Shown: piece after piece, positions 1-60,925 of the stretch | Layout: the number at the start of each line of letters is the position of its first letter | Position numbering within the stretch: position 1 is the first letter of the stretch | NCBI GenBank assembly: GCA_012295275.1 | Contig: CM022678.1 | Coordinates: 7,998,001-8,062,000, forward strand | Direction of reading: 5' to 3' | DNA from: Chrysomallon squamiferum | Taxonomy: Eukaryota > Animalia > Mollusca | Length of the DNA: 64,000 nucleotides | The notes under the pieces: generated by a model | The model's input: the letters and a program-made list of their open reading frames with translations, nothing else | What the model was told of the DNA's origin: nothing | The model's database searches: none | Translations under genes and position numbers: made by a program

Positions 1-17
1 AAAATATTTGAGATCTG

Positions 18-60
<43 letters not shown>

Positions 61-659
61 GACAGTGAAAAAAAAAATAAATTCCTGCATTTATACTAAT
101 AGTAACAGCAACAACAACATCAACTAAAACAAAAAAATAATAATTACTGATGACTGTTTTTCATTCTGACATTAAGAAATACATTTCACACATTAATAAT
201 TTTGAATGTATTCAAAATAATAATAACAGTAATAACAATAAAAATAGTAATAGTAATAGTAATAATAATACTAATGGTAATAATAATACTAATATTAACA
301 AAACGGATAACAAATATCAATATTAACAACAATAATAAAAAAAATAATAACAGTAATAAAAATCACAATGATAAAGGGACCCAAATAATATCAGTAACAA
401 CAATAAATGTGCACAGGTTTAATATTATATTATTTCTATTTTTACCTCAGCAAGTTTTTCTTTATAATTTTTTTTCAGATCAGTAGCACTGTCAAACATT
501 TGTCCAGTGTAGAGGGCTGAATAGTCTGATAGTCTGCAAAATGTCGTCATCTTTACCAGCAAAATCTACCCCTGTCTGTCTGCTTGCAATTTCATTTGCT
601 TTACCAAAATCTATAACTTTTATATCCAAAGGTTTCTGAAACATGACATTACCAGCTGG

Positions 660-860
660 AAGATAAATAAGTAAATAAATGAATAAATAAATAAAAAAAT
701 AGAATAAAATAAAATAAATAAATAAGAAACTAAATAAATAAATTAAATAAAATAAAATAAATAAGAAACTAAATAAATAAAATAAAATAAAATAAATAAA
801 TAAGAAACTAAATAAATAAAATAAAATAAAATAAATAAATAAGAAACTAAATAAATAAGT
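660..860. repeat. AT-rich minisatellite (~30-bp unit containing taagaaactaaataaata), also at ~29040-29240
   Basis: Four taagaaactaaataaata cores separated by (aaaat)n, in the intron before the DFG exon. Confidence 0.7.
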
Positions 861-1401
861 AAATCAATATAACTTTAAAAAAAACAAATTCAGATATGTT
901 TTGGAGACTATGACCTAAAAGTGCTATAACCTAACCAATACAATACAAATAAAATTTAACCTAACCAATACAATACAAATAAAATTTATGAAGAAAAACG
1001 TGATTACATCCATTGATCTTTTTCAACTACGTTTCTGTATCCTGTATTCATGTAGTTAAGTTTAGTCAGAATTTTCAGCGATTTTAATTTTAACAGCCAT
1101 GGAGATGGGAGTTGTAAATAGACAGTTAACAATATCAGGAATAAAAATATTTGTATATCTGAATAACTGTCAGGTGCTACTTAATAAGATCTATTTGGGG
1201 ATTCTAAGGACTGTGTAAATATGCTAAGTAATTAAAAATGCTTCAAACTATGCAGGTCTCCGTGACTCCAGTTCTTTTCATGCATCCTTCTGACTGCACT
1301 GAGTAAACCTTTGAAAACGTAGAGAGAAAACGGGCGGCGACAATCCGCAGGTATTACACTCTCCTCCAAGATGTCTTTCAGTGTGATTGCTGAATATTGA
1401 T

Positions 1402-1402
<1 letters not shown>

Positions 1403-1447
<45 letters not shown>

Positions 1448-1479
1448 TAACAACAATAATAAAAATATAAAAAAAATAA

Positions 1480-1524
<45 letters not shown>

Positions 1525-1545
1525 GCTACTACTACTAATAGTAAT
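1403..1545. repeat. (TAA)n-type microsatellite next to the acceptor of the catalytic-loop exon; equivalents at ~17478-17670, ~29780-29865, ~43585-43665, ~59320-59355
   Basis: Trinucleotide runs seen directly; they produce the poly-L/Y/I/N ORFs in the track. Confidence 0.85.
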
Positions 1546-4500
1546 AAAAAAATCAGAAAGCAGTACAAATTGAAAATGAAATAGAACAAAATGAATGTGT
1601 TAAATATTCAAGTATGCACTCTGAAAAAATCATTATGAAAATAGTTCAAATAAGAACTTTTATTTAATGCTAAAAACAATTTGTATCTACATGTGTATCT
1701 ACATGCGTGATTGCAAAATTCTTTTTATACTGATTATATCTGTAACCAGCCAGTAAATAAAACTATATCTATAGCAAAATTTATTATCTGCAGTTGAATA
1801 TAAAATGATAATAAAAGAAACATTTGTTATATTTTGTTTCAGGGTAGCACAAGAGCTATTTTTAAATAAAAGGTAAAATAAAAATTTGCTTCTTCTCACC
1901 TTGCTTGAGTTCTTCCATGTGAAAACAGATCTCATTCTCTTCCCTTCTAATCAGATACAACTTGGGTACAAATTCTGTTTCATTCAAATCAACCCAACAT
2001 TTTACTTCATTTTCTCTAAACTGGCTGATCATAACCTGAAATTCATCAAACTATTGAAAATCACTGTATAAACTGATGGATATTAAAAAAGGAATGAATG
2101 AAGAGAACAGATGAATAAATGGATAAATAATCAGTCTGTGAATAATATTAAAGGAGGAACAAATGAATAGAGGAATGAATAAAATAATAACTGATCAACA
2201 AAATCTCCATTTCACAAATTTTACTAGATGGTATGTTTATGTTTATATACAAGAAAACATTTCCTATAAAATCAAAGTACTGAAGAGGAAATTCAATGAA
2301 AGAACTATTTTAATAAATAAAGGAAACTTTTCTACACATTTTTCAATGGACAACAGTGAAAATTAAATGCATTGTTTATTTATAATAACTTACTGACTTC
2401 ACCGCATGTTTTGTTTTACTGCCAACATCTTCAACTACGATGATGTCCCCAGCAATGTTTCCTTTTCCAAGAATTTCACCAAGTTGTCTAAACTGTTCAC
2501 CCTTCCTATATTTTCTATTTTTTAGTGTTATCTGTAAAAATAGCATTGACCCATCTGATATTCATAGTTGTAGGTTATTAGCTACAAAACATATTTTTAT
2601 TATTCTATTTTAACTGTAAATATTCATCAAGTTTTCTTACAAAATGGTTATCAGATATTAAATAGTAACATATTTCTACATTGTATGTGCAATTTTAATT
2701 ATAAACACCCATATAACATTCTCTCTCTTGCTCTCACTCTCTCACTCACTCACACACACACACATACACAAAATAGTTCATTTTGAAAGAAATTTAAGAA
2801 AAAAAAAATATAAATAAATTTTAATTTCAAATTGCTATAATAATATCAAGCATTAGGATAATAGAATGGAGAAAAAATTCAAAATCAGAAAGTCTAGTAC
2901 AACAAAATTTTTTTTTTTTTTTATAGTAAGCTGTAAATTTGAGTCAGGTCATATACTACAAACTGCTTTTTCACCTTCATCAACTTTATCTTATTTTCAC
3001 AAAAATCATTAAAACAAGACTGAGATACACAATGTTGTTAAGCATTTTTTTGCTTTCTTTGTTGTTTGAATTTTGTATTTTTAAATTACTTCTGAACCAT
3101 CAAAAACAACATCAGTGGGGATATGATGTTTCAAAATCACCTTCGATGAATCAAGAACCACACCAGCAGGGCTACGGTTTTCTTTCTCATATTCAATCAA
3201 CTCCATCATCGACTTTATTCTTCGGGTGATATCTTCATCTGATTTGGGTTGCTGTATAACGTCTGCTTCTGATTTGTCAAGATAATAAAGTCTTGGGATT
3301 GTCCTAAACAAAAAAATATTCTTATTCAATAATTGATCTTTCTCATGCATACTCGAACTAAACTGAACAGAAATTTATTTACACTTGGTCTGTAGTCTAT
3401 AGCGTTTGAAGATACATTCAGTACGAAACTAAATGGTTTACAGAGAATACAAATTACAGTTTAATAAAGACCAATTAAATTTGCTTACTTTTCATCCTTG
3501 TATGTCAATTTAACAGTGCCTTTGGCATCTTCCTCTAAGTGAGCTAAAATGAGCATAGTTTCTAAACTGTAATCAGAATAGATGACTAGAAATTCAAAAC
3601 TGTCCAGTCATATTACAAATTACAAAATCTACTGCAATAAACCAAAAATGATTATTATAACTTGTACGAATAATTAAAAAAAAAGTAATAAAACAAAGAA
3701 TATGGGAATATATAAAAATATAGTTTCACAGAACACGAATAAACTACATGTATTTTGTACAATTCTAAACTGTGAGACCTTTAACAAGTACAAATAGTTT
3801 CTGTCAGTAGAACTGTGTGTACACATCAGTTAAAATAGACTAATGAAAAGATACTGTGTACATTTTTAAACTGTGAGATCTGAATAAAGTATAATGGGTT
3901 TCTGTCAGTATAACAATGACTTGCATTTTAAACTCATCCAAACAGTTTTAAATACAGTTTAAATACACATTTAAGAAAACCCTAAAAAAAACCTTACCTT
4001 TCTTTTCAACAACATAATTGAGGACAAGCTTCATTCTGCGTTGTGTTTGTGGTGATAGCTGTTCAATTTTGGAAAGAAATTCATCTATGTGAAAAAGAAA
4101 CAGAAATTACAGAAACAGTACAAGATGTAAATTTACAATAATTGTTACTGTAAGTTTTTTGGTGTTAATAAAATTTTAAATAAATAAAACCTTAGTAATT
4201 GCTAACTGTTAGAGTAATTGTTTAATAATGCTTCATGATCTAAGTTTGTGTACATCAGAATATTTGAATGTGTTTGTGTGTGTATGTGCATTTTGTGTAT
4301 GTATTTATGTGTTTGTGTATTTGTGTATTTATGTAGGTTTTGTATTTGTTTAGGATTTGTTTGTGAATGTGCATGTGTGAGTGGACATATACATATATAT
4401 TACTGTGTATGTATTTATGCATATGTGTGAGATGGTTTTGGTTTTTTCTTATTTATGTGGATAAATTACTTATGTATGTTTACATTTATGTGTGTGTGTT

Positions 4501-5674
4501 TCTACCTGTTGATGTGAGTATGTTTACATGCATATCTGTGGGACAGTTTTATAAAGTGCACACCTATACACATAAGCAAATATATATATATATATCAAAT
4601 AACTGGTTACTGTCTTACAATATCAGCTTTAGCCTCTGAACGTTACAATGAGGCTAAACTACACACCAAAATAAACTAGTTCTTAAATAACAACAATTTT
4701 AATTTTTATTTTATTATTATTATTATTTTTTGTTGTTATTGTAAAAGCTACATTCAGTATGGTCATTTAAGATCTAAACCAGCAATTAGAAACTAAACAA
4801 ATTGCTTAGAATCATATGTGTGTGAGCGTGTTTTTGGTATGTATGTATGAATGTATGTATGTGTGTGTGTGTCTGAGCATGTGTGTGTTTGTGTGTGCCT
4901 ATGTAAGAGACTATACTAACTTAGTGTGTGTGTGTGTGTGTGTGTGTGTGAGGACAAATGTGTGTTTAACACATACCAGTCTTAAGAGAAGTCTGCTGGA
5001 GCCTGTGTTTGTCTTTCAGAGTAACTTCTAAATTGTCCCCTTTATCAATAGCCAGTGATAAATCTCTATCCATATTTGACAGAAGAGTTATTTTCTCCTG
5101 GCTTTTTACTGTAATTGTTTCTTCATGTATTGTGATTAATCTGTAAATACAATTATCAAATAGGAAAAACTGACAAATATGAAGTACACATTAAGGCGAT
5201 ATTTCTGCAACTTAAAAACAACAACATACTTTTTTTCTATAAAAATACATCAAATCAATTTATTTTACAAAATTTTAATGAATTTAACAAAACTGTATTT
5301 TTTTTTTTTTACTAAAGTATTATATGTATTAATCTTACCTTTGAACTATGGATTTCTTTATTTAAATTTGTTACTTTCCACAGAATATGAAAAATTATTT
5401 AAATAAATTTAATTGTTCAAGTTAAATACTATTGTTATTTTAAACTTGAAATATGTGCAGTTTAATGAGACATACACACACTACACACACAATGACACAT
5501 GTATGTGTAATCAATATTTTAAGTACAATGCATTCAGATTCAGTTACTAATATTTGTATAAACTATTCTTCATTAAAAGTTATAAATAAATTTATGGTGT
5601 TTAAGAAGTTATAAAAGTACTTTTGTTAATCAAATCTGAATTTGATTTTGTTTTAATAAATCATGAGATCTTAC

Positions 5675-6170
5675 CAACGTTGTACTGCAAGCTGTTATGG
5701 TTGTTAGTATTTTCATTCTTTTTTTTTAAATATCTAAAAGTAGGTCAGTTAAATGTTCGTAAGCAAGTGGCTTAAATGGAAAGAAAATAAACAATTTAAA
5801 AAAAAAAAAAAAATGTATATAGATTATTCAGGCTAAACACTATTCTCTGTCAATAGCTACCTGGAGCCCCCTTGTATATAATCCAAATAAAATAATCCAG
5901 CGAGAAATAACAAAACAAAGAACAAACAAATAAACAAACATTGCTAGGAGTGGTGAGGTACTTGCACGGATTATTAACACTTACAACAAAATGTTTATTT
6001 AACAAAGGCCTATTCTTCTCGCCCAGTGAACAACGCGATAAATAACCCAATTCGCTCCAGTGTACTTCGGTTTCTGTTTGTGTTTGAAATAAATTAACCA
6101 GACCAAACAATTTAACATTAGATTACATAACCGAGCGTAAAACTGCTGCCCAGCCGGTGTTCTGTCAAAT
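5675..6170 (-). promoter_or_regulatory. Putative promoter and non-coding first exon of kinase A (copy at ~34000-34460 for B, diverged copy at ~47780-48100 for D)
   Basis: Consensus donor gtaaga at 5674-5669 (minus), TATA-like TTATATA at ~5875-5882 (minus), locally higher GC/CpG, and the block recurs upstream of three paralogs. Confidence 0.35.
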
Positions 6171-6195
6171 AGTTACTCATTACTTATGTACACAA

Positions 6196-6196
<1 letters not shown>

Positions 6197-6248
<52 letters not shown>

Positions 6249-6391
6249 AAATATCAATAACAATAAATAAATAAATTGTGTAGGGATTTAGTGGATTGTT
6301 GCGTTTGTTTGTTTGTTGATTGATTTATTTTATTCTATTTTATTATTGTTTCATTTCATTTAATAATTTGATTTGATTGACTGGTTGATTG

Positions 6392-6441
<50 letters not shown>

Positions 6442-6500
6442 CATTTATTTATTTATTTATTTACTTACTTACTTACTTACTTACTTATTTCATTTTTATT
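6197..6500. repeat. Compound microsatellite (TAA)n/(TTA)n/(TTAT)n/(TTAC)n; duplicated at ~34485-34770
   Basis: Seen directly in sequence. Confidence 0.85.
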
Positions 6501-6999
6501 TATTCCCGGGTTTTCCAAAATAATTATATTTTGTTTGTTTGTTTGTTGATTGATTGATTTTTGTTTCTTACTGTGGTCTCGTTAAACATTCATTCATTTA
6601 TTCAATTGGTCATAAAGTGAGTGTAAAAGTCTCACAAATACCACCTTTACTTTTAATAGTTTTATTATTATTATTAGAAAGCTTTTGTTTATTGCATTGT
6701 AATAAACATTTTTAAATTATGTGTATGTTTTTATTATCATTCACCCTTAAATATATGGGAAAAGTTAATAGTATTTTAGTAAACAAATTTTAAACCTACA
6801 GTAGCAAGGATCAAATATGTTTAACACCGGAATATTCAACTGGTAACCTACTGATTTTGAATTCCCCGCTGAACGTTATAGCGTAGCATAATTTTTATAA
6901 CAGTCACTATTTAGGAGGCAAAATACGAAACTGATTAAAATGTAAACATTAAATTCAATATATATTGCAAGTTTTTGTTTATTTCCATTTAGTATATGT

Positions 7000-9900
7000 G
7001 AATACCGTAACATTCTTTCCTTTTTAACGTCTAAGCGAGTTGTCGGACGATATCCAAGAAGAGTAACTCCAAATTGTTTAATGGTGCAGTTTGTGATTGA
7101 AATTCATTACGAAACTTTGGAGATACGAGGTTGTTGGTGTATGGCTAAATACAACTCATATTTCTACTTTTATAATCTAATAACATTAAGAGTCCCAACC
7201 GTTCTATGCTACTCTTTCATAAGCTTGTTTCATATAATGATATATGAATTAAAAATATCAAAACTATCAGCCTATATTAGTATATATAACAATACAGAAA
7301 CAGGGTGTATGAATTTGTGATTGAAATATACAAGAACTAAAGCGAGTAAAATATTTGTATTTGGAAAGCTATTATTATTATTATCTACATTTTTTCATTG
7401 CAGTATACTAACCTGCACAAAAATAAATCTTCCGTCACTGGTTTCAACCTTTTTCATACCGCGACCCCTTATTATCTTACGAGCAACTGAATATGACCGA
7501 TGACCCCCTTTAAAATGTTTGATTCAATAACATCTAGGGTTACCATATTTTCATCAAAGACAGTACAAAACGAATCTGAATTTTAATTTATTTAGCTATT
7601 AGTATTCTCGAACGCGATAACACAAAATCATAATGTAATTCAAAGTAAGTAATTTATTTCTGACGTTAAAATCTTTAAAAGTTTAAAAAAATACAAATTA
7701 GACAAATCATGGTTTTCAACCAAAGGTCCAATGATTCTTAACAATGTGTGCCGTATTTTAATTTTCTAGTATTTCTATCATGCCCAGTCAAGAAGAGATC
7801 AACAAGAACTCCGGTAGCGACAATAACATCCTCAGGTGTGATTACATTTTGTCCATCCACATCATCATGGCCAATCCATGTTATCTTGTCTGCAGAACAG
7901 AATAATGTAATGGAATAACGTGTTAAACTGTTGCAAATATGTATTTCCTCATTTGTTACCGTCTTAAATAATTGTGTGTAAAACTACATCAACAATTAAC
8001 ATAATAGTTTACCTTTTTGGCAAAGGAGATTCTTTCATCTTTTTTAATTGTTAAATAACTGAATCAATCAAAGAATGCTACAATAGCTGATTGTATAACA
8101 AGAAATGGTCTTTAAAAACAAACTGAAAAAAAAAAAAAGAAGTCATATCTGATGTGAACTGTTAATTTTTTCATTTGAAACCATATGATTGAAACATCAA
8201 CAGTATCACTGGCTTAGACATATGAGTGTGGTATGTTACTCTATGTTTGTATACACAAAACAAAGAACTATGATTATATTTTTGCAGTGTTTGGAAGAAA
8301 TCATTTGAGACATGATACTTTCGTTGGTGATAGATACCACTGTTGTAGAATTATATGTATCCATGAGTTCTAAAACTGAGTTGCATGTACTTCCAGACAG
8401 ATATATTAATTACACGAGATACTAATGACTGTTTTAAGAATTTGATTGTTAGTTTTTTGTTTACTCAACACCAATTTTGTAATAACATTCATTTGTCATC
8501 AACTATCTAGTCATTTGAGTTATTACATACACACATAGTGTACACAAACATGTACATACACATTAAGATATTTTGTTTCTTCCAGATTTTACTACTTGAA
8601 TTACATTTATTTATTAAATATTTGATTCATTTTCATTTTTTCTTAACATCAAAAATAATAATAGAGGGTTTTTTTTCTACATCGAGTGCTTTACCTATTT
8701 CTTTTTTAAACTGAAATAAGTTATTGTTAAAATGTTGTACAGAGGCGAGTCAGTTAGGTTATTATAATTATTTTTGTTTTTGCTGTCAGATTGATAAAAT
8801 GCTTCTATTCTGTTTACTTTTAGCTGACTCTACTGTTAAAACGGTTTAGTAATAAATTTACTGCCTTAAAGGTTTTTTTCTGTTTTGCTTTTTCTCTGGT
8901 GATGGTTAACAGACGGTACCATGCACGAATAAATAAATATTTGTTTAACAACCATGCGACAGGTAAACTACTAATGTGGTAAATGTTCTTTATGAGCGTC
9001 TTTTTGAACACAATGGGACTGAAGATTGATCCCACAGCTAGTAGCATCTCAGTCCAACAATATGGTCTGTTAATGATAAAAGAGAAGAAACCTGATTACT
9101 TAGTTCTACACGCTGTTATAGCTTTTTATAAACATCTGCTGGGTATGTGGTTGGAACAGGAAAGAAAACGGCAGGTGCTGGAAGGACAATTGAAAATGTA
9201 GTTCAGAACATCTCCACACATGTATAATTTATTTTTACCTGGTTTAACCAACAACACAGGTAATCTAGAGCTACCAACTATAAACAGATAAAGAAACACT
9301 TTATAAAATGACTAAGTCCATTATTCTTGTACATTTCCATTTTACAGAATATATCTTTTGTCCTTTTAATACATTATGATTATCTTGTCAATACAGAAAT
9401 TAGTTGAAACTGCGTAGATTTTGCTTGCTCACATTAACCATGTAGAACCATATTCCAATTTCTCAGAAAGTTATGATTAAAAATCTTGTAAAATATCAAA
9501 AATGATTTGTGAAAAAGTTGTTATAAAATTAATTACATTTTTGCAAAATTAAAAACTCTAGTTTAAAAGTATCATAAATAAATAATATTAACAATTCTAT
9601 ATGTTACTTTCATCAGCCTATATCAGTATATGAATTAAAAACATCACAACTATCAGAATTACATATTACAGAAACATCATCAGAATAAAATATTATAAAT
9701 ATTTCCTTACTGTATTGACAAGACAAAGTATTAAAAGAAGCACAATTTATTAAAAAAAAAAAAAAAAATTTCTGAGTATAGAATTTTGTTAGAATATAAA
9801 CAAATAATCTTCAAGACATGATTTGTAAATTAGAGGAAAGACAAATAGAAAATTTTCAAAGATCGACCCATACATAACACTGTTTGTTTCTGCGTTGATC

Positions 9901-11180
9901 ACCCCACTTTTCTCAGTCAGTTCAGTAACCACAGCAAATAATCTCAGTTTGAATACTGCATAGTTGACAAGTTCTCAAGTAAATGTGTTATGCAGAAGAT
10001 GATGCCCGACAAAAAAGGAAGTGATTATTATTTGCTTTTCTTACAGTTTATTTGTTTTTATTTATTTTATAACATATTTGTGAGCTGTGATCATTAGAAT
10101 ATAGGCAGACAGGAGAAATGTTTGTTAAAATTTCAAAAACAGGGAGGGTTATATCTTGTAAACTACTTGTGTGGTCATGCTAAAACTGGAAATATCAGCT
10201 TCTTCTATGCCAGTTATCTTTACTACCCTAACTTCAGATCTTAAATAACAGAATCGTATCTTGAAGATTATTAAAATCCAGAAATAAATTGTTAGTAATG
10301 CAACAAAAACTATTTACAAACATAAGAAAACTCTTAAAATATAAAAAAAAATGAAAAAGAAAAAGTCTATTAATAAATAAATAAATAAACTTTACTATAT
10401 TCACTGGCTTTAAGTCAAGGCTAAAAAATTCTGTCATTTAAATTAGCGTCATGAGAGAAAATTTGAAAAAACAAACAATAACAATAATCAATAAACCACT
10501 GAAATCAGATACAATTTTAAAATAATTAAGTTTTTGACATTATGGGAAAAAAATTATAAATCTTAAACTTATAGTAGAGAAAAATATTTGAATGTTTTCA
10601 ATAAAGACATCAGTAAATATCCAAAAATGAATAAAAAAAAAAAATTATAAATAAAATATAAAAAAAAAAAAAAAAAAAATTACAAAAACCTAGATAAGAA
10701 ATGTAACAGAAAAAAATGAAACCTACTGCACAATAATGATAAAAAATTACACACACACTCTTGTATCAAAGTTTTACAAATCAGAAATAACTTTTAACAA
10801 GAGAAAAAATGATAAATAAAATAAGTACAAAAAAAGGAAGAACTTATATTATCATCAGAATAAACAAATGTTATACCTTTCTGAATTTACTTTACATTAA
10901 ATGCCAATTTTGAGTTTGTTAATCCCAGTGTTTCTTAGTTTAAAATAAAGTGTTTTCTGAATTATGTAATTCACTTCACAGAATATAAAATTATGAATAG
11001 AAACAAATTTAGCAAAGAGGCACTACTGAGGTTCCGTCACAATAAGAAAAAAATGTTTTCAGCAGTTTAAACATATGTTAAATACAGAATCTGTATCACT
11101 TAACTATGAACAATAATTAAATATTGTCAGTGGATTTAAATCAACAACAATAACAGATAAACCATTGAAAACGTGAGAAA
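7000..11180. repeat. Intergenic spacer block repeated between kinase paralogs (copies ~35300-41180, ~54900-58600; partial ~25180-25860 and ~48880-49330)
   Basis: Shared marker strings such as catcctcaggtgtgattacattttgtccatccacatc, gggactgaagattgatcccacagctagtagc and gttgatcaccccacttttctcag recur in each spacer. Confidence 0.85.
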
Positions 11181-11185
11181 TTTTA

Positions 11186-17501: not shown

Positions 17502-17534
<33 letters not shown>

Positions 17535-17563
17535 GCAACAACAATAATAAAAATATAATAAAA

Positions 17564-17600
<37 letters not shown>

Positions 17601-17617
17601 GCAACAACAATAATAAA

Positions 17618-17649
<32 letters not shown>

Positions 17650-46884: not shown

Positions 46885-49800
46885 AGAAAGAAATTTACCT
46901 ATACGAAAAAGAAACAGAAATTACAGAAACAGCAAAAGATGTAAATTTACAATAATTGTTAGTGTAAGTTTTAGTGTTAATAAAATTTGTAAAAAAAACA
47001 AGACAACAGTGATTAATTGTTAAAATAAAGCAATTGCTTAAAATGTAAATGTGTATGTCAGAATATTTGAATGTGTGTATATGTCTCTCACTGTGTATGT
47101 ATTTATGCGCTTGTGTGTTTATCTATTTATATAGATTTTGTATTTGGTTAGGATTTGTGTGTTTTTATGTACTTATGTACATATGAGTGCTATGTATTGA
47201 TGTAAATATGTTTTTATGTGTAAGTGTACATGTATGTATGTGTAAAACACACACAGATATACTGGATAAAGCTGATATCATAAGACACTAACCAGTTATT
47301 TCCTATAATTTGTGTGTATGTGGAGTGTGTGTGTGCGTGCGTGTGTGTATGTACTGAGCATATATGTGTGCGTTTAAATTCACACTGGAATACGTACTAT
47401 TTTGTTTATTTTTCTCAGTATCCTTATCTTCTTTGACAGTCAGTGATAAATATATCTCCCTGCTTTCACAAGTTATATTGTCATTAATCTGTAAATAAAT
47501 GTATCTAAATAGGAAAACTGACAAATATGAACCTTTTTTTTTTTTTTTTTTGGTGTAGGACTTGAAATATATGCACTTAGGACAATCGAATATATATTTT
47601 TAAATAGATCGTATGTGTGTGTGTATGTGTGTGCATGTGCGTGCGTGTGTAATTCTATTTTAAATACAATGCATTCTGATTCACCTGAGTTACTATTATT
47701 TGTATATTTCTCATTAAACAGGTATAATTAAAATTTATCAGTTTTATCCAATAAACGAAGACAGGTTAGCAACACTGTACTGCAAATTTTTATTTTAATT
47801 AAAACAAAAAATATCTAAAAAAAAAAGTCAGTTAAATGTCCGTAAGAAAATACTTAAAAGTAAAGAAAATAAACAATGATTTATGATTTAGATAATTCAG
47901 CTAAACGCTATTTTCTGTCAAAAGCTCAACAGCCGCCTTGAGTGCCCTTGCATATAACCCAAATAAAATACTTTAACTCTCCATCCACACAGAAAAAAAA
48001 AAAAAAAAAAAAAACAAATAAACAAACAGCTGTAGGGAATGGTGAGTTAACTTGCACGGATTATTAACACATTGAAATATTTATTCAACAAAAGCCAATT
48101 GTTTTTGCTTTATGAACAAATTTGTTCAAGTGGACCTCAGTGACAGAAGTAAAGGAGCTAATAAATATTCATAACAGTAAAACTTCATCAATATTCAGTT
48201 CAATAGACACTTTTTCATGTATCAGTATCTTCGAGTTTTCTTTCAGTCAATATCATTGATTTGTCTATAAAATAGAAGTGGCTAACGATCTCCACCGTGA
48301 ATTTGCTATGTCACAGTAAATTCATTTTAGTGAGTAGAACGACCAAGAATTTCATATGTTTCTTTGAATGATCATGATATACAAAAGTGTTGTTTGCAAT
48401 TTGTTTGTTGCCATTAAAAGGCTCACTTCTTGTTCTGTGGAAGATGTTTTTGGCAAGATGCTTACAGGACGTTACATCGTACAACAAAGATGAGACGAGC
48501 ATTTAAATACTATTAAATATGATTTGCATTCATTTCTAAATCTAGCATTCAAAATGAGCAAGTAATACTGGTTTACAAAATTACACAATTCTATCCAAAT
48601 ACTGAGTGTTTAGATAAAAAATTACCTCATCTTTAGTTATAAAAGATATCTATCTACATCCTACCACTGAGTTAGACCTTTGCAAAAAGTGAAGATTCTA
48701 AATTTACCAAATTTGGCACAATAGTTATTTGCTGCTTAATTTCTGTTTCAAGTGTACATCAATGTAACTGATGTTTTACTGCTGTATATCTTAACTATTT
48801 GGAAGCAAATATCACCAGAATGAAATAGAATCTGTCTGTAATTCAAAACAGGGAAATTTGTTTTACACGTTAATATTTTTAAAAATATAATCAATATTAG
48901 ACATAAATCATGGTTTCACTACAGATTTTACAACCAGAGGTCCAATGATTCTTAACAGTGTGTGCCGTATTTTAATTTTCTAATATTTCTATCATGCTCA
49001 GTCAAGAAGAAATCAACAAGAACTCCGGCAGCGACAACAACATCCTCAGGTGTGATTACATTTTGTCCATCCACATCATCATGGCCGAACCATGTTATCT
49101 TGTCTGCAGAACAGAATAATGTAATGGAATAACGTGTTAAACTATTTCGTTTCTCCTAGCTCCATTTAGTTTAACAACAACAACAACAAAAACAACAACA
49201 AAAAGAATACAAAGTAAGAACAAGAACAACACAGGAGTTCTAAATGTTATCAACTTTTATCAGCCTATATGAGTTAAAAATTTCACAGCTATCAGCCGAT
49301 ATATAACAGTACAGAAGCAGAAACGGGTGTGTGAAATTATGTCATTGAATATACAACAAATATGGCGAATAAAAAGACCCGGATGACGTGAAATTTGTGG
49401 TGAAATTGTTTCTTTTTCTATTTATATTAATTTGAGGAATCACAGCTGTGTAGTGTTTGGGCCAGAGAATAATCAACGAAACGACCTGCTTCTAAATTTT
49501 AAATTTAATAATAATATAATAATTAAAAAGAAGGGATTAAATATTTGTATATTACACTTCCTTGTAGTTATGGTATGGACTAGGTAATTCATGAATTATT
49601 TTTATATTTTAATGCACAAGTAAAGTTTGAAATATTATTTAATTATCCATTATCTGATCGTAATAAGGAAACTTAAATCAAACTTACATCTTCTCGCTCC
49701 ATGTTGCTTAACTTTCGTAAACTGTGACAGCTTTACCTTTTCAGTTTTATATATCAGGGGTCTACTTTCATTACGGAAATTGCGTGAATCGGTAAAAGCT

Positions 49801-50102
49801 ATATAAGGGAAATTACCTCATGAGGTAATGTTATGACCTAGTTGGATGACAAGAGTACAAACACATTCATGACTAGACCCCTTATTATATATACGTGCAC
49901 GCCAGGATATAGTCCATTTTTTTAATAAATTACTTATATAGTGAAATTCTGAATTCTACTGACAGAATTCGTTTAATATATTATCTATTTTAAAAAAAAA
50001 ACCCATTTATCTGGAAAATGAGATCAGTTTGGTTGACGAAGCCTTCGTAATTTTTCTTCTTATTCTTGTCTGATTATTATTATTATCATTAGTGTTATTA
50101 TT

Positions 50103-50165
<63 letters not shown>

Positions 50166-50342
50166 GACTACTACTATTACTACTTTTATTATTCAGTTCC
50201 ATCATCGAAGAAAATTATATCTGTGTCATCCAGTTCTAACTGGTCTTAACAAACCTTACAATCCAGTTTCGTAAATTTCTTTCTTATGAGCCTAGCAGCA
50301 TTTTTAATGTGTTGTTTCGTTTGCACCTTTTATAACAATATA

Positions 50343-50377
<35 letters not shown>

Positions 50378-51565
50378 ATAATAATAATAATAATAATAAT
50401 AAAATAACAACAACAACAATTTTTCTATAGAGTAGACATGATTAATCACACAGTAACCACACATTTATAATTCTTCGTGGACATAAAAAAATAATAATAA
50501 AGTGTACATTTTCATACAGCGAATTTATTTCGTTTGTGTAGCGAGGTACTGGATGATTGAACGTATTTAGAAATATGATATCAAACACCAAATTTAAAGG
50601 TATGTTGATATATTTATTTTCTACGTAATTTAGCTATTAATTCTCGCGAACGACTCTAAACAAGGTCAGAAACATAAGCTATATATTTGGATCAGTGAAC
50701 ACATTTGGAAATACCATGTCTATCTAGTGACATCTAGGTAAAATAAACAAATAAAAATAAAAATAAAGAAAACAACAAGAAAAAGAAACACTATATATAT
50801 TTCGTCTCTCATATCTCCATTTAATTTAATAACAACAACAACAACAACAACAACAGTGATAATATTATCGAAACATAAAATAAAATAAAATGCTTCGATT
50901 CCTATAGTTTCTCTCGGATGAAATAATACAACTCATAGTTCGACTTTTTAATCTAATAACTTTAACAGTTCTACGTGTTACTCATTTTTATGAGGCTGTA
51001 CGAGTTGAAAATATCACAACTATCAGCCGATACATAACAATAAGGAAACAGAAACTTGCACTTGAATAACAGATTTCCAAACTTCGTAACATGATGCTAC
51101 CTGAGCCCATTCTTTTAGAGTCAACTTTCTTTGCATCTTAATAGGGTTTTTGAATTTTAAACAAAATAATTAATCTGAAAAGAAAAACAATAATACTTTT
51201 AAACAAAATATCATCTGAAAAGAAAATAACAATCTAGATTTAATTTTCATATATTAAATAACATACATGAAGGAATTGAGAAAAAAGTAACTGCAAATTA
51301 AAACATTATGAACTGTTTAAAATAGGGAATGACTTTTCAATCACCCTGTGTATATACATATATATATATTTGTATGTATATATAAAGGTGTATAAGGGAT
51401 GTTACCTAATAAGGCAATGCAATACTCTTATTGCGTAACAACAGTATAAACATATTCATGACTATAACCCCTTACTATATATACGTGCACGCCAGGATAT
51501 AGTGTATTTTATTATAAATTACTTATACATTGAAATGCTGAGTTCTACTGACAGAATTGAATATA

Positions 51566-52966
51566 TACTCTAAAAAAGAAACGCAAAAGTAGATTTTATT
51601 GACACTGGGAATATCTAACTAATGGATCAACAGAAAGCAGCAGAATGTTCCCCTTTAGCACACACTTTCGCAATTCATTAATATTGATGGTTTTACATGG
51701 AAAAGGTTTAAACAGTATAATATCAATACCCTGTGTGCCCATCGTGGGAGTCCAGAACTGCCTGACATCTCCTTCCCATGGCAGTGATGACATTACGAAT
51801 TTAATCTTGTCGAATGGTGGCCCACTCTGTCTGTAGTAATAATGCCAACTGAGCTCTATAGGGTTCACATCCGGAGATTTTAGAGGGCCAGGGCAAGACC
51901 TGAATGTTACTGTTGTGTAGGTACGCTGTTGTGAGTCTGGTTGTATGTGGTCTTGCATTGTCGTGCTGGAATACAGCGTTACCATTATTCGTACTTGGAG
52001 CGACATGTGGCTGCAAAATTTCATCTCGGTATCTCTGTGCCGTTAAGTTTCCTTGGATGTGAACCAGGTTGGCCCTGTCAGTGTGTGAGATTGCTGCCCA
52101 CACCATCACCCTACCACCGCCAAATCTGTCCGCTTCCTCTATGCAGTTTGCAGCAAAACGTTCACCACGACGTCTGTCAACTCGACATCTTCCATCAGCT
52201 CGACGAAGCAGAAATCGAGCGTCGTCACTAAACCAGACAGTTCTACATCGTAACTGAGGCCAGACTGTGCACTTGACACCACTGACGTCGTAGTCGGCGA
52301 TGTTGTCCAGTCAAAACGGCTCTTCTTACAGGACGTCTGGCTCAAATACCTGCCTCGAGTAAACGATTGCGCACTGTCTGGGCGGATATATTCTACGCAG
52401 TACTGGTATTGCTGAAACAGCAGAGATTGCAATGGTGTTTCTTTCCCGTAGATAAAGTACCCGTATGTAGCGGTCCTGGGACCTTGTGGTTACACGTAGT
52501 CTACCTGATCTGAGACGGACACGTGTTGTTTGTTGTTGCTGTGACCGATACCACAATCTCAAGATGGTGCTTGGGGATGCATGGAACACCCGGGCTACGG
52601 CCGAGAAGGATTCGCCAGCTTGTAAACGGCCAATAGCGTCGTTTCGTTGCGGTTCACTCAGTCGTGGCATTTCTTTGATGTTGGGTCAGAACAAAAACAA
52701 CGAACAGAAGTTTTCGAAAACCTTGCATTTTTATAACCCTCGTGTTCAAGTTTCATGTGCCGCACGTGCACATGTACTAGTAACGTGGTTTGCATGCGAG
52801 AACGTTTTGGCTAATAAACGATCATAGCCTTTATTTTGTGTTACCTGCTTTTTGGCGACTGTAACGAAAGTCATTATTCATAGTTTGTATATGTCATCGA
52901 TATGTGTCAGTTTACAGTAGTTATCTGAGAAATGAACCATTTTGCGTTTCTTTTATTGGGAGAGTA
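51566..52966 (-). mobile_element. Tc1-family (DD34E) DNA transposon, ~1.4 kb, defective
   Basis: TA-flanked TIRs TACTCT..AAAAGAAACGCAAAA at both ends, GC-richer interior, transposase fragments on the minus strand. Confidence 0.9.
51801..52670 (-). pseudogene. Tc1 transposase pseudogene
   Basis: MPRLSEPQRNDAIGRLQAGES...RSGRLRVTT (paired-like HTH, GRPR-like), FSDDARF, MMVWAAIS, FQHDNARPH and SPDVNPIE, with 34 residues between D and E once one frameshift is corrected. Split across frames and 3'-truncated. Confidence 0.9.
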
Positions 52967-55900
52967 TATTTAATATATTATATATTTAAACAATATTTAT
53001 CTGGAAAACGAAATCAATTTGATTTCGAAGCCTTCATAATTTTCTTCTTCTTTTTCTTCTTCTTCTTCTTCTTCTTCTACTTCTTCTTCTTCTTCTTATT
53101 ATTATCACTACTACAAGTACTATTACTACTTTTATTATTCAGTTCCATCGTCGAAGAAAATTATATTTGTGTCATCCAGTTCTAACTGGTCTTAACAAAT
53201 CTTACGATCCAGTTTCGTAAATTTCTTTCTTATTAGCCAAGCAGCATTTGTAACGTGTTGCTTCGTTTGCATCTTTTATAATAATATATATCAATACATT
53301 ATCCATGTATCAAAGTAATATTTCATAGGAACTTTATACGCTTATTAAATTTAGCTCTTTCGCGAACGTGATTAAACAAACTGAAAGTAAATATGACTAA
53401 TTTTCGTGCAGTTAGAAAAACTCGTCCACTCATCTCTGTGTATGAATTGGTTTCTTATCGTGATGCCGTTTTAGGGGCTAATAATAATAACAACAACAAC
53501 AATTTATCTATTTAGTAGACATGATAAATCAAATAGTAACCACGCATTTGTAATTTTCGTGGAAATAGAAAAATAAAGTGTACATTCGTTCAGCGAATTT
53601 ATTTCGTTTGTGTAGCTAGACACTGGATGAATGAATGTGATATCAAATACAAACTATGTTAAATACATAAGCTATATATTCGGATCAATGAACACATTTT
53701 GAAATACCATGTCTATTTTGTGAACTCGCTATCAAGGAAAAAACAATGTTTATATATATATAAATATATATATATGTTACGTCTCCATTTATTTTAATAA
53801 TAACAATACAACAAGAACAACACAATAATAATAATATCGAAAAATAAATTAAACTGCTTCGGTTCCTATAGTTGCTATCAGTGTCACTCGGATGAAATCA
53901 TCCTAACCAATGTACAACTCACATCTCTACTTTTTAATCTAATAACACTAGGACTCACAGGAGTTCTACGTGTTGATAACTTTTATCAGCTACAAATATC
54001 ACAACTATCAGCCGATATATAACAGTACAGAAGCAGAAACGGGTGTGTGAAGTTATGTCTTTCAAACATACAAGTTATATGGCGAGTAAAGAGACCCGGA
54101 TGATGTAAGAACTATTTGTAGAGCTGTTTGTAGTGAAATCGTTCCTTTTTCTGTTAGTATTAATTTGAGGAATCACAGCTGTATAGTGTTTGGGTCAGAG
54201 AATAATCAACGAAATGACCTGCCTCAAAATTTAAAATTTAACTGTACAAAAATAAAATAGTGAATAAAACACAATAATTAAAAAAAAAAAAAAAAAAAAA
54301 TAAAAAATCTTTGTGTTATCTTTATATAGTCTAATTTTTATTAGGCCATCAAAACTTTGCCAAAGATTTACATGTTTTGCCGTTTTTGAAGTTAATTTGT
54401 TATGTTATTTGCTTCCTGGTTATTTGTCTATTACACTTCCTTGTAGTAATAATTTCATTTATCAGTTAACTATACCTGAATCATAATTTAATGGACAAGT
54501 AATGAATGGTATTAGTTAAATATAAAGTACATGATCAAATACAAAATTTAAAGCTATCTTGACATTTTTATTATCTTCGTAGTTTAGTATTAATTTTCGC
54601 GAAAGTAATTAAACAAAGAGAAAGTACACAAGAGTAATTTTCTTGCAATTAGAGAAATATTCGGATCAACGAAAACATCTTGAAATATCATGTCTTCTGA
54701 ACTCGCTTTGTAGAAAGGAAAAGAAAAATGATTCCATTCTTATATTGGAAAATAAGTGAATTAAAAACATTTGCTGTAGCAGAAGAATAGGAAAACTATG
54801 GAGAAATTTGTTTTCTCTTCAATCATCAAAACAAATTACGGCAACATTGTTTGACTCTTGGTTGCAGAATGAAATAAAATCTGTTTGTAATTCAAAGAAA
54901 GTTTTTTTATTTCTGACGTTAGAATGTTTAAAAGTGTAAAAAAAAATTAAAATTAGACATAAATCATGGTTTGACTACAGATTTTACAACCAAAGGAACA
55001 ATGATTCTTAACAATTTTAATTTTCTAGTATTTCTATCGTGCCCAGTCAAGAAGAGATCAACAAGAACTCCGGTAGCGACAATAACATCCTCAGGTGTGA
55101 TTACATTTTGTCCATCCACATCATCATGGCTGAACCATGTTATCTTGTCTGCAGAACAGAATAGTGTAATGGAATAACGTGTTAAACTATTGCAGATATG
55201 ATATCCAAGAACAGTAACTCCATATTGTTTAATGGTGCTCTGACTGTTAGCAGACGGCAAATGATGTGAACTGTTAATTTTTTCATTTGAAACCATATGA
55301 TTGAACAGTATCACTGGCTTAGACATATGAGTGTGGTATGTTACTCTATGTTTGTATACACAAAACAAAGAACTACGATTATATTTTTGCAGTGTTTGGA
55401 AGAAATCCTTTGAGACATGATACTTTCGTTGGTGATAGTTACCACTGTTGTAGAATTATATGTATCCATGAGTTCTAAAACTGAGTTGCATGTACTTCCA
55501 GACAGATATATTAATTACACGAGATACTAATGACTGTATTAAGAATTTGATTGTTAGTTTTTTGTTTACTCAACACCAATTTTGTAATAACATTCGTCAT
55601 CAAGTATCTAGTCATTTGAGTTATTTCATACACACAGTGTACACAAACATGTACATACACATTAAGATATTTTGTTTCTTCCAGATTTTACTACTTGAAT
55701 TACATTTATTTATTAAATGTTTGAGTGATTTTCATGTTTTCTCAACATCAAAAATAATAATAGAGGTTTTTTTCTACATTGAGTGCTTTACCAATTTCTT
55801 TTTTAAACTGAAATAAGTTATTGTTAAAATGTTGTACAGGGACGAGTCAGTTAGTTATAATAATTAATTCATATCATTACATGTTGATATTTCATACATT

Positions 55901-58900
55901 TTAAAACAAATTATTTACTTGATTATTTGCTGATTATTTCTCGTTATAGTTAAATTATGTGGTAACTTTTGCCGAGTTTCGTATGAACTCCTGAATGTTT
56001 ATGATTTACCTTGTATTCTTGATGACATTAGTGTTGTGGTATACATATTTAAAACAACAATGCTGCTAGATCTTACAATTTGCTGATTTATTATTTTTTA
56101 CATGGGGATTAATTATTTTCTTGTGCTGTTTTGGTATTTAAAGTCACTATGGATTTTACTGTCAAACTGAACCACAGGAATTACTCTATTTATCTTTTGC
56201 TGAATGTACTGTTAAATTTTACTGACATATACATTTCTTTTCTTTTGCTGATTTTACTGTGAAATAGATAAAAAAACATATTTATATTTTTTCTGATTTT
56301 ATTGTCAACTTGATAAAATGGTGTTAATTTGTACTATATTACAGTTTTGTTGATATTTACTATAAGACTGAAAGTGCTATTAATTTTTATTACATTAAAT
56401 TTTTGGTTTTGCTGTCAGATTGATAAAATGCTTCTATTCTGTTTACTTTTAGCTGACTCTACTGTTAAAACGGTTTAGTAATAAATTTACTGCCTTAAAG
56501 TCTTTTTTCCTGTTTTGCTTTTTCTCTGGTGTTGGTTAACAGATTGTATCATGCACGAATAAATAAATATTTGTTTAACAACCATGCGACAGATAAACTA
56601 CTAATGTGTTAATGTTCTTTATGAGCGTCTTTTTGAACACAGTGGGACTGAAGATTGATCCCACAGCTAGTAGCATCTCAGTCCAACAATATAGTCTGTT
56701 AGTGATAAAAGAGAAGAAACCTGATTACTTAGTTCTAAACAAGTGTTTCTATATTGACACATGCTGTTATAGCTTTTTATAAACATCTGCTGGGTATGTG
56801 GTTGGAACAGGAAAGAAAACGGCAGGTGCTGGAAGGACAATTGAAAATGTATACATGTATAATTTATTTTTACCTGGTTTAACCAACAACACAGGTAATC
56901 TAGAGCTACCAACTATAAACAGATAAAGAAACACTTTATAAAATGACTAAGTCTATTATTCTTGTACATTTCCATTTTACAGAATATATCTTTTGTCCTT
57001 TTAATACATTATGATTATCTTGTCAATACAGAAATTAGTTGAAACTGCGTAGATTTTGCTTGCTCACATTAACCATGTACAACCATATTCCAATTTCTCA
57101 GAAAGTTATGATTAAAAATCTTGTAAAATATCAAAAATGATTTGTGAAAAAGTTGTTATAAAATTAATTACATTTTTGCAAAATTAAAAACTCTAGTTTA
57201 AAAGTATAATAAATAAATAATATTAACAATTCTATATGTTACTCACATATAAATATTTCCTTACTGTATTGACAAGACAATGTATTAAAAGAAGCACAAT
57301 TTATAAGAAAAAAAAAAAAAAAAATTCTGAGGTTAGAATTTTGTTAGAGTATAAACAGATAATCTTCAAGACATGATCTCTAAATTGTAGGAAAGACAAA
57401 TAGAAAATTTTCAAAGATCAACCCATACATAACAGACTGTTTGTTTCTGTGTTGATCACCCCACTTTTCTCAATCAGTTCAGTAACCACAGCAAACAATC
57501 CCAGTTTGAATACTGCATAGTTCACAAGTTTTCAGGTAAATGTGTTATTCAGAAAATGATACCTGAGAAAACAATAAGTAATAGGAACAAAATCCTGCAG
57601 ATAATATGATAATAACATATATTTGTGAGCTGTGATCATTAGAATATAGGCAGACAGAAGAAATGTTTGTTAAAATTTCAAAAACAGGGAGGGTTATATC
57701 TTGTAAACTACTTGTGTGGTCATGCTAAAACTGGAAATATCAGCTTCTTCTATGCCAGTTATTTTTACTACCCTAACTTCAGATCTTAAATAACAGAATC
57801 GTATCTTGAAGATTATTAAATTCCAGAAATAAATTGTTAGTAATGCAATGAAAACTATTTACAAACATAAGAAAATTTTAAAATGTAAAACAAAAATTAA
57901 TAAATAAATAAATAAACTTTACTAGACCAATTGAAAAAAAAGAAAAGAAAAAAAAAACATTATGGAAAAAAATTTATAAATCTTAAACTTACAGTAGAGA
58001 AAAATATTTGAATGTTTTCAATAAAGACATCAGTAAATATCCAAAAATGAATTAAAAAAAAAAAATTATAAACAAAATATAAAAAAAAAAAAAAAAAAAA
58101 AAAACAAATTACAAAAACCTAGATAAGAAATGTAACAGAAAAAAATGCAACCTACTGCACAATAATGATAAAAAATTACACACACACTCTTGTATCAAAG
58201 TTTTACAAATCAGAAATAACTTTTAACAAGACAAAAAATGATAAATAAAATAAGTACAAAAAAAGGAAGAACTTATATTATCATCAGAATAAACAAATGT
58301 TATACCTTTCTGAATTTATTTTAACATTAAATGCCAATTTTGAGTTTGTTAATCCCAGTGTTTCTTAGTTTAAAATAAGTGTTTTCTGAATTATGTAATT
58401 CACTACATAGAATATAAACTACATAGAATATAAAATGATGAATAGAAACAAATTTAGCAAAGATGCACTACTGAGGTTTCGTCACAATAAAAAAAAACTT
58501 TTTCAGCAGTTTGAACATATGTTAAATACAGAATCTGTATCACTTTACTAAGAACAATAACAAAAAAAACCTTCAAAAAAATAAAAAAAGCAACAATTAC
58601 AATAATAGATAAACCATAGTAATTAATAACATGTTCAATCCAAGCCCCACACTGCTGAATCATTAAAGTTGTTGACATATCTCTTGGAATTCTCCTAATT
58701 TCTCACCTGATGTTTTCCACAGAACTCCGTAAAATCCCAACTTCTTGTGGACCTCCACTGCAACTGTTCCAAATGAGTCCTAATGTCCTGCTACACCCAA
58801 CCATTCACCTGAAAATGGAAATAAAACATTAATTTCTCTGGAAAAATAAAAGTCTTTAAAATTAAACTGCTTTTTCTGGACTGCCCTGTAAAATAAATCA

Positions 58901-59190
58901 GATTGTTGAAATGAAAAAAAAAAAAATCTTGATAATAAACTCATAGCAGAGAAAAATGTTTAAATTTTCTCATATCTAAAAACCAATAAAATTAAAATTT
59001 GAGAAAAATTACACAATTTTTATTTACCACTGAAAATTTTCTTTATATATATATATATATGTAATAGCTTCAATAATAACAAATATAATTAAAAAAAATT
59101 AAAACTCATGCTAGTCTCTCTAACACACACACACACACACACAAACACACAGAGTTTCTGTATTTTGGTAGTTAAGTTTAGTCAGAATTT

Positions 59191-60925
59191 TTAAATAAAA
59201 AAATGGTTCAAACCATCAGGGTCTCCATCAGCTAAATACTTCTTAACATAGACAACAAGCTTTTTGCAACATGCTTCCATGAATCTATTTTTGCCGATAC
59301 GCTCCCATGTAAGTGCTGTAAATAATAATGATGATGATAATAATAATAATAATAATGAAACAATAAAAATTAAAAATAAATAGAATGAAAGAATATGCAA
59401 GTATGTAGGTTGACAGAAATTATTATGAAAATAGTTCAAATAAGAATATTTTATTTAACATTAAAAACATTTTGTATTTACAAGCATATACTGTGATTTG
59501 CAATTCTTTTTTACATTGATTATCTTGCACTCCTTACATTTTGAACTAGCATTAAAAATTTCATACAGCCATAATTAATTAGCCAATAAATAAAACTATA
59601 CCTATAACAAAATCTATTATCTGCTGTTGAATATAACATGGTAAAAACGAAACATATATAGTAGTATTTGTATGTACATTTGATCTATATTGTTTCTGGA
59701 TAGCATAAGCAGAAGAGCGATTATTAAAAAGAATAAATCAATTTGTAATAATAATAATAATGTATTTGTTCTCACCTTTGTCTAAATATTCCATGTGAAG
59801 ATAGAATTTTTTCAGGCTCCTTCTAAATAGAAATAATTGGGGAAAGACAAAGGAATCGTTCAGATCGGACAGACATTTTACTTCATTTAGGTTATTAACT
59901 GCCACCTGAAATTAACAAATGAAAATCACTGTCTGAATAAATGGATGGATATTAAAACAGGAATAAATGAAGAGAATAGACAAATAAAGGGATGAATATG
60001 AATAAAATGATTAATATTAAAGGAGGAACAAATGAATAAAGAAATGAATAAAATAATAACTGATCAACAAAATCACCATTCCACAAATATTACTAGGTGG
60101 TATGTTTAAGCATTTCCTATAAAAGTCAAAGTTCAGAAGAGGAAATTCAATGAAAGGACTATATTAATAAATAATAGAAACTTTTCTATACATCTTTCAA
60201 TTGACTAACCAATAAAAATTAAATGTTTTATTTATTTACAGTAACTCACCATCTTCATAGCATGTCTTTTTCTAGTGCGAATATCTTTAACTTCAAAAAC
60301 AGTAGCAGTTGTTCCACTATAACCAACAGGTCTAATCAGTTTAAATTGTTCATCTTGCTCATAGTTTCCATTTTCCAGAGTTACCTGTAAAAACAATGAC
60401 ATCATATTCACTATTCCATTTTAACTGTACATATTCAGCCAATTTTCTTATAAACAGATGTCAGATATTAAATAACAAGATATTTATTCCACTGTACATG
60501 TAATTTTCTCTAACCATCAAAAACATCATCAGTGCTGATATGATATTTTTGAAAAAACAATGACATCAAATGATCAATCTTATATTTATTATTTTCAGTT
60601 TTCTTATAAATGGACTTTAGATATCAAGTAGTAACATATTTCTAGGTTTTACATGTAATTTAAATTATACATACTCGTGTAATTCTTTCTCACTCACTCT
60701 TTCATACACAAACAAGCAGACAAACACACAGCCTCACTCACAAACATTATATCTCATTAATTATGAAAGAAATTTAAGATAGAAAATTATTTTTATGGTT
60801 ACCATTGAATCGTTAAGAACAACACAAGCAGCAGAACAGTTTTTCTTGAAGTCCAATATCGACATTATCCTCTTTTGCAGAACTTCATCTGAACTGAGTT
60901 GCTTTACAAAGCAGGGTCTTGGCAT
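59191..60925 (-). CDS. Truncated N-lobe-only kinase paralog, copy E (~170 aa); could be a pseudogene
   Basis: In-frame exons 60925-60803 (MPRPCF..CVVLNDSM), 60384-60250 (VTLENGNY..VGYSGTTATVFEVKDIRTRKRHAMKM), 59905-59776 (NLNEVKC..LHMEYL), 59315-59214 (..YLADGDPDG; read-through stop at 59191). No DFG exon downstream. Confidence 0.55.

Follow-up and report, generated by a model that had tools for sequence, protein, structure and literature searches.

The kinases NIK (MAP3K14) and Tpl2 (COT, MAP3K8) are single-copy in vertebrates, and Tpl2 binds NF-kB1 p105 and ABIN-2 and activates MEK, while NIK phosphorylates IKKalpha and thereby promotes p100 processing. In NIK, an N-terminal extension keeps helix C positioned for activity, and the kinase is active without phosphorylation; Thr559 of the P+1 loop, located 25 residues after Asp534 of the DFG motif, bonds to Lys517, and the domain map of the protein also includes TRAF3-binding, negative-regulatory and IKKalpha/p100-binding regions (PMC3431628). 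The activation loop, the APE motif and the helix-F Trp (W-[SA]-x-G) form a network that is specific to eukaryotic protein kinases (ePKs) (PMC1821047). PRPK and Rio2 are devoid of the loop, yet they autophosphorylate and hydrolyze ATP (PMC7864929). As for molluscs, the portion consulted of an Aplysia survey reports NIK and Tpl2 orthologs as not identifiable (PMC9334734), and the text examined of an oyster kinome paper mentions neither kinase (PMC4883820). Here, a tandem array of five related kinase genes, named A to E, is described in 64,000 nucleotides of the mollusc Chrysomallon squamiferum (assembly GCA_012295275.1, contig CM022678.1, positions 7,998,001 to 8,062,000), hereafter the window, whose own coordinates are used throughout.

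The reading favored here, with moderate confidence, is that the array holds five copies of a mollusc-wide, loop-less kinase that probably stems from the NIK/Tpl2 branch, and that copy C is predicted to be always on, to use ATP and to depend on docking. What appears to be new, judging from the sequences, is an undescribed NIK-related kinase family spread across molluscs and lacking the activation segment. No study on this family was found in published titles and abstracts (supplements, which were outside the scope, may list its genes), and a literature search with six member locus identifiers returned no papers.

Copy C and its molluscan relatives

Copy C (26756-33431, minus strand) is modeled with 11 exons, located at 33431-33268, 32451-32365, 31910-31856, 31670-31508, 30902-30765, 30376-30241, 29766-29626, 29035-28824, 28396-28225, 27773-27691 and 26881-26756, which are separated by ten AG/GT introns and keep a frame open for 469 amino acids, counted from the first in-frame ATG (33364). 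Unlike in a preliminary description of this DNA, C includes a final exon at 26881-26756, and a gene end at exon 10 was rejected in view of this exon 11. RNA contigs extend about 160-175 letters past exon 1, and therefore further 5' exons are likely. C keeps the glycine-rich loop (G-loop), the beta3 Lys, the helix-C Glu, HGDLH..N and DFG; the catalytic residue set of the kinase fold is thus complete in C, while D is devoid of the G-loop and has DFE, and E ends before DFG. Exon 8 of C (28824-29035, minus strand) holds both the DFG and the helix-F Asp, 22 residues apart, so a missed exon is excluded as the cause of the short loop.

A profile built from four exon-6 sequences matched 41 proteins out of 1.84 billion, 21 of them 375-550 amino acids long; one match, P0006, is a repeat protein and was rejected as a false member. 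A second profile, made of 24 of those proteins together with cluster members, retrieved 35 proteins in a word-filtered search, for which reason the absence of canonical NIK from its results is uninformative. Names were obtained for 18 of the 30 clusters looked up and for 21 of the 35 proteins, and all of them belong to bivalves, gastropods or cephalopods, although the unnamed members from ENA and Logan could come from other animals. Nearly all are annotated as 'uncharacterized' or 'hypothetical', the labeled exceptions being one Mya protein ('M3K14-like') and one oyster protein ('citron rho-interacting kinase-like'). Relatives with names include Mya WAR16230.1, Haliotis LOC124148295, Patella LOC126816697, Lottia LOTGIDRAFT_236872 and Saccostrea LOC134242162. 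The best eight relatives are 38-43% identical to C and colinear over its length, and the comparison with a Haliotis relative gives 42.6% identity over 446 columns (E 4e-109). The window genes belong to this family, which was delimited by full-length colinearity, HxDLHxxN and a DFG no more than 26 amino acids from helix F, traits borne out by the profile scores of C and D and by their motifs.

Other searches were less informative. Single-exon Pfam scans gave weak Pkinase matches for two of the 16 kinase-gene exons, and single-exon PDB profiles found nothing for exon 6, generic CAMKs for exon 7 (best E 0.02) and one match for exon 5 (E 1.6). A word-index search with exon 8 of C returned nothing at the 'longer' lengths, and the ESM Atlas contained generic kinase clusters only.

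In a quick tree of 54 rows, restricted to family members and omitting A as near-identical, copies B, C, D and E form a single group with a Shimodaira-Hasegawa-like approximate likelihood ratio test (SH-aLRT) support of 99, with D and E as long branches that meet and Haliotis sequences as the closest rows. This grouping suggests that the duplicates found here are a local expansion. Among other molluscs, Mya, Dreissena, Tegillarca (three), Nucella and Sinanodonta have members with adjacent locus numbers on contigs of equal length, and tandem duplication is therefore recurrent. The lineage-specific expansion proposed earlier stands for the local group, but other molluscs also possess the family and duplicate it in tandem. 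Five proteins from ENA/Logan (P0008, P0026, P0033, P0038 and P0039) cluster on long branches; their loop, of 13 amino acids, is the shortest in the family and their catalytic loops vary, which points to a probable independent expansion in some other animal. Another observation concerns exons 2-3 of C, corresponding to residues 58-105 of P0024, which encode a small family-specific module made of a helix and a beta-hairpin, located before the NIK-type extension; its LSP motif is present in 33 of the 50 relatives aligned below, the module did not align to NIK in the fold searches, and it is a possible docking site.

Catalytic residues and probable kinship with NIK

Residues were compared in 50 relatives longer than 250 amino acids (267-550), a set that omits most near-identical cluster members, exon-only fragments, the repeat protein and the partial or exon-skipped models P0018, P0028, P0037 and P0103. 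The Lys, the HxD motif, the Asn, the DFG-Asp and the helix-F Asp are kept in 50/50 and the helix-C Glu in 49/50. The position of the catalytic-loop Lys is occupied by His in 46 of the 50 and by Lys in none; the APE motif and a Trp two residues after the helix-F Asp are likewise found in 0/50. The distance from DFG to helix F is 13-26 residues, with a median of 20. Hence the family is not a typical ePK, as the extended activation loop, APE and the helix-F network are missing.

An alternative that we consider improbable is that the family is a conserved pseudokinase or an ATP-driven switch, binding nucleotide and acting as a scaffold or an ATPase without a protein substrate. The loss of the P+1 loop, APE, the helix-F Trp and the catalytic-loop Lys throughout the 50 relatives fits it, as do the ATPase activity described for PRPK and Rio2, which are also loop-less (PMC7864929), and the frame of copy D, which is open despite the absence of a G-loop. 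Against it, the catalytic Asp and Asn are invariant although a protein serving purely as a scaffold could do without them, and PRPK and Rio2 also autophosphorylate (PMC7864929). Given that the Lys, Asp, Asn and DFG-Asp persist in 50/50 relatives, we argue that ATP chemistry has been kept, as in PRPK and Rio2. In the favored reading of a docking-dependent kinase, retention of the NIK-type N-terminal extension would make phosphorylation of the loop unnecessary and would leave the enzyme always on; as the counterparts of both P+1 Thr559 and Lys517 are gone, ordinary peptide binding would probably have been lost, and targets would be reached by docking rather than through the P+1 loop.

NIK is the nearest characterized and solved kinase to the family. 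When two family profiles were searched against PDB, NIK entries occupied the first 11 rows (65 bits, E about 5e-17), followed by a CDPK with 58 bits, and the match to NIK spans the N-terminal extension up to DFG, where it ends. Fold searches used AlphaFold models of a member of the Saccostrea cluster and of a Haliotis member (predicted local distance difference test score, pLDDT, 77). Foldseek returned NIK as the best match for both models, with MK2 entries between NIK and COT in one of the searches. With VIA-align, the first model matched NIK with Z 23.9 (root-mean-square deviation, rmsd, 3.2; 289 residues aligned) and COT with Z 21.7 (rmsd 3.2; 259 aligned), and a wide search with the second model over 48,161 chains gave Z 22.1 for NIK (rmsd 3.1; 285 aligned) and Z 20.5 for COT (rmsd 3.3; 261 aligned). 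The models align from NIK residue 332-333 onward, with model residues 107-429 lying on NIK 333-668, and exon 4 of C encodes the segment colinear with the NIK-type extension. Taken together, the profiles and predicted folds indicate that the family likely derives from the NIK/Tpl2 branch. The preliminary description had assigned the copies to the NIK/Tpl2 subfamily; the kinship is supported by the profile and fold searches, but the genes are members of a derived, mollusc-wide, loop-less family rather than ordinary members of that subfamily.

Several observations weigh against this assignment and the reading built on it. The profile lead of NIK over CDPK is only about 7 bits, and neither the best 60 rows of one profile search nor the best 45 of the other include Tpl2. 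In the wide fold search Bub1 reaches the same score as COT (Z 20.5, rmsd 4.0, 271 aligned), and the folds come from relatives rather than from the window's own proteins. HGD, a motif that NIK shares with A and C, is not a family trait, being present in 2/50 relatives while HRD is present in 25/50. The Haliotis protein P0098, used alone, finds CDPKs and no NIK at E<=1e-4. The P0098 and Bub1 results, and an identity to NIK of only 15-20%, would also be compatible with the likeness to NIK being convergent or marginal and the family having arisen in another kinase group (CAMK-like or Bub1-like). This origin is nevertheless very unlikely in our view, since the sequence match to NIK, in contrast to those to CDPKs, already starts in the extension that precedes the kinase core, and NIK comes first in the two profile searches and in each of the four fold searches.

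The array, its copies and their transcripts

Copies A to E are all located on the minus strand and share exons and phases, as read on that strand, so the five minus-strand paralogs with a common exon and phase skeleton reported earlier are borne out by the gene models and by the family-profile scores. When joined, the models score 419 (C), 261 (B), 148 (D) and 76 bits (E) against the family profile, compared with 1.9 bits for the best of 80 shuffled controls, separate scores being given for these four copies. Modeled junctions are AG/GT, except for a GC donor at exon 2b of D and a lost donor (GA) after exon 8 of B, and the open copies have phase 0 at the start of exons 5 and 6 and phase 1 at the start of exons 7 and 8. 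The motifs that had been listed as one set are a composite, with no single copy holding them all: GVVLDSSK/ITLKNRKY occurs in A, B and C, FRENEV and HGD in A and C, HMELL and IPED..ALYFLGQ are confined to D and KDIRTRKRHAMK is confined to E. The catalytic loop reads HGD in A and C, HRD in B and HED in D. A weak-looking exon-7 donor, GTTTGA, is kept in all five copies (1248, 17318, 29625, 43436 and 59213), where it splits the catalytic loop between the His and the next residue; one relative, P0018, is an isoform without the catalytic-loop residues.

Copy A (1-5140, minus strand) comprises exons 1-8, and its exon 9 extends past the window edge. It is about 96% identical to C, and 98-100% in exons 1-7, with four differing sites, and its exon 8 has lost 2 nucleotides, so that the sequence past DFG is out of frame; from this likeness, A may have been duplicated recently from C or may represent another haplotype of the C locus. 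Copy B (15250-21180, minus strand) is a dead gene of chimeric make-up, with a frameshifting 2-nucleotide insertion in exon 6, a stop directly after DFG in exon 8, the lost exon-8 donor and a purine-rich exon-7 acceptor. From intron 3 to intron 5 (19000-20430, minus strand, ends approximate) B is 92-99% identical to A/C, a tract that likely originated by gene conversion or unequal crossover; exon 3 of B is 90% identical to A/C, and its other exons outside the tract 64-83%. Copy D (41196-47488, minus strand) has a frame of 426 codons that stays open between exons 2a and 10, with a dead exon 3 skipped in the model and exons 2 and 9 each doubled; it is 43% identical to C in amino acids, its exons 5-8 have changed in length without loss of frame, and the missing G-loop, the HED loop and DFE in place of DFG make it a likely pseudokinase. 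Copy E (59214-60925, minus strand) is truncated, with 163 open codons in exons 4-7, a degraded G-loop and exon 7, and exon 8 onward absent. The array is therefore a birth-and-death cluster in which intact, altered, truncated and dead copies stand together, and these exon lesions agree with what had been proposed earlier.

Five sequencing runs contain part of 27500-34500, four of them being RNA from one study; the RNA runs contain 0.19-0.24 of the words of this interval, about the share of its exons. The interval 31480-32480 was examined in three of the four RNA runs and in run X5, which confines the RNA evidence to exons 1-5 of an A/C-type transcript. Each of the three RNA runs joins 31670/31856 (exons 3/4) and 31910/32365 (exons 2/3) with GT-AG ends, and the loose ends of their contigs coincide with the first position of exon 5 and with the last of exon 1. 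This transcript is thus spliced across exons 1-5, and four of its junctions have RNA support from three runs of one study. At exon 3 of C, if this is the shifted junction of the preliminary description, no shift is needed: an acceptor at 31928 was rejected, as the RNA uses 31910, which is in frame and has a matching AG in A (3543) and B (20426). At 31628, the sole exon site in this interval that separates A from C, the RNA carries the copy-A letter, and for that reason expression cannot be assigned to intact C; this letter, the single study and the restriction to exons 1-5 add to the points against the favored reading given above. Run X5, whose kind is not on record, covers introns and has neither the exon 2/3 nor the exon 3/4 joint. 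Low-depth contigs (3-4) over intron 2 (32068-32390) in two of the three RNA runs may be retained intron, pre-mRNA or DNA and were kept out of the junction evidence. Two X5 pieces lying partly on 32315-32461 could not be matched anywhere in the window when 3 mismatches were allowed; they resemble the exon-2 acceptor region at a depth of about 130 vs 48-60, which hints at additional copies in other parts of the genome.

Self-comparison shows the upstream spacer of A (4681-11284) again on the upstream side of C (32981-41184, 83-94%) and a further time in the interval separating D from E (54886-59006, 85-95%), and the duplicated unit is therefore gene plus spacer. Unequal crossover may have produced these units and conversion mixed them, with most copies decaying or changing fast. 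A scaffold gap of 200 N (23932-24131), located between B and C, divides A and B from C, D and E, and beside it lies a local duplication (21838-22709 vs 23057-23931, 94%). It is conceivable, although rather doubtful, that the array is in part an assembly artefact and in part neutral decay, with A and C being haplotypes and B, D and E unconstrained relics. The gap, the four differing sites in exons 1-7 of A and C, one X5 contig that mixes A-type and C-type letters, and the dN/dS values close to 1 reported below all agree with it, and A and C may indeed be haplotypes of a single locus joined across the gap. B and D, the neighbors upstream of A and C, are however only 53-74% identical in exons, too different to be alleles, and even then the array would comprise no fewer than four distinct copies; D, moreover, stays open over its 426 codons, with its length changes in frame, at 43% identity to C.

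Exons diverge more than introns in all six copy pairs, about twofold. Between C and D, 247 of 706 exon sites differ (35%) vs 295 of 1581 intron sites (19%), and between D and E 39% vs 21%; unalignable and low-complexity sites were dropped from the introns, which lowers the intron values, and about 21% exon divergence is expected from base composition. Exons that diverge faster than introns are a pattern of venom and immune genes. The ratio of nonsynonymous to synonymous substitution rates (dN/dS) is 0.74 (0.54-1.04) for C-D and 0.62-1.02 for the other pairs; since every interval spans 1, these pairwise values do not demonstrate positive selection. Four-fold sites also exceed introns (11/34 vs 19%, p 0.07), which makes intron homogenization as plausible as diversifying selection, and the data do not distinguish diversifying selection from intron-biased conversion.

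Two broader proposals draw on this divergence. One, in line with the preliminary description, sees the family as a working molluscan NIK/Tpl2 ortholog and the array as an immune expansion. NIK being the nearest solved kinase, the twofold exon divergence and the Aplysia survey cited above, with no NIK or Tpl2 identifiable in the part consulted (PMC9334734), favor it, but a protein of 469 amino acids leaves no space for the TRAF3-binding, negative-regulatory and IKKalpha/p100-binding regions of NIK (PMC3431628), and dN/dS values of 0.6-1.0 with intervals spanning 1 do not favor an immune expansion; we regard it as unlikely. The other, to which we likewise assign a low probability, would have the family be the missing molluscan counterpart of NIK/Tpl2 in an always-on, loop-less form governed by its abundance and by docking; molluscs would repeatedly have expanded it in tandem, with diversifying exons and homogenized introns, and the resulting pseudokinases and truncated copies would modulate immune signaling or act as decoys in it. 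A role in NF-kB or MAPK signaling, guessed from ancestry, is a tentative suggestion with less than even chances, and a putative innate-immune role is drawn solely from the vertebrate relatives.

Regarding its setting, the window is AT-rich, with a GC content of 25-33% per 4-kb bin. The spacer between B and A contains a tandem repeat (12052-14653) with 6.5 copies of a unit of about 390-410 bp, a partial unit of which lies near 25930-26130. Between D and E there is a broken Tc1/mariner-like transposase (51600-52830, minus strand), in which 52326-52685 matches Pfam HTH_38 (E 3e-6); its next frame resembles a DDE domain, for which Pfam gave no match, and direct repeats (49230-51055 vs 52969-54241) flank the remnant. 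Upstream of the array lies the last exon of a lipoate-protein-ligase-like gene (63318-63721, minus strand; Lip_prot_lig_C, E 0.0014, under the Pfam cut-off), for which a word-index search at the 'longer' lengths gave no homologs. An Rfam scan gave 0 matches.

Comparison with NIK, Tpl2 and loop-less kinases

The array itself is an ordinary birth-and-death cluster, except that its exon divergence outpaces that of the introns, and the wider interest lies in the family. Where the Aplysia survey, in the part consulted, left NIK and Tpl2 unidentified (PMC9334734), the family offers a concrete candidate in oysters, mussels, abalone and cephalopods. It also represents a natural experiment in kinase design, in which an ePK-derived enzyme would have dropped the activation segment and the partner Lys while the catalytic residues were kept phylum-wide. 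The window genes show the same residue pattern as the molluscan family at large, within which they form their own group.

Like NIK (PDB 4G3G, 4DN5 and 4IDT), the family has an N-terminal extension of about 60 residues packed on the N-lobe, the N-lobe motifs through DFG and the overall C-lobe fold. Unlike NIK, it has neither an activation segment nor a P+1 loop, is devoid of APE and of the Trp in helix F, has His in place of Lys517, and is multi-copy; C has 469 amino acids vs the 947 of NIK, and judged by this length it has no room for the TRAF3-binding, regulatory and C-terminal signaling regions. By its loop, the Lys517 position and its tails, the family therefore stands outside NIK proper. 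Tpl2/COT (PDB 4Y83 and 4Y85) comes second to NIK in VIA-align, level with Bub1 in the wide search, its extension being aligned from COT residue 73, and its overall length is similar, but it has a full activation segment. The loop-less PRPK/Bud32 and Rio2 resemble the family in the short linker that joins DFG to helix F and in the K/E/D/D signature (PMC7864929). They nevertheless belong to an unrelated branch with a smaller C-lobe and fall outside the best 50 of the wide fold search, so the likeness is only a comparison of how such kinases may work.

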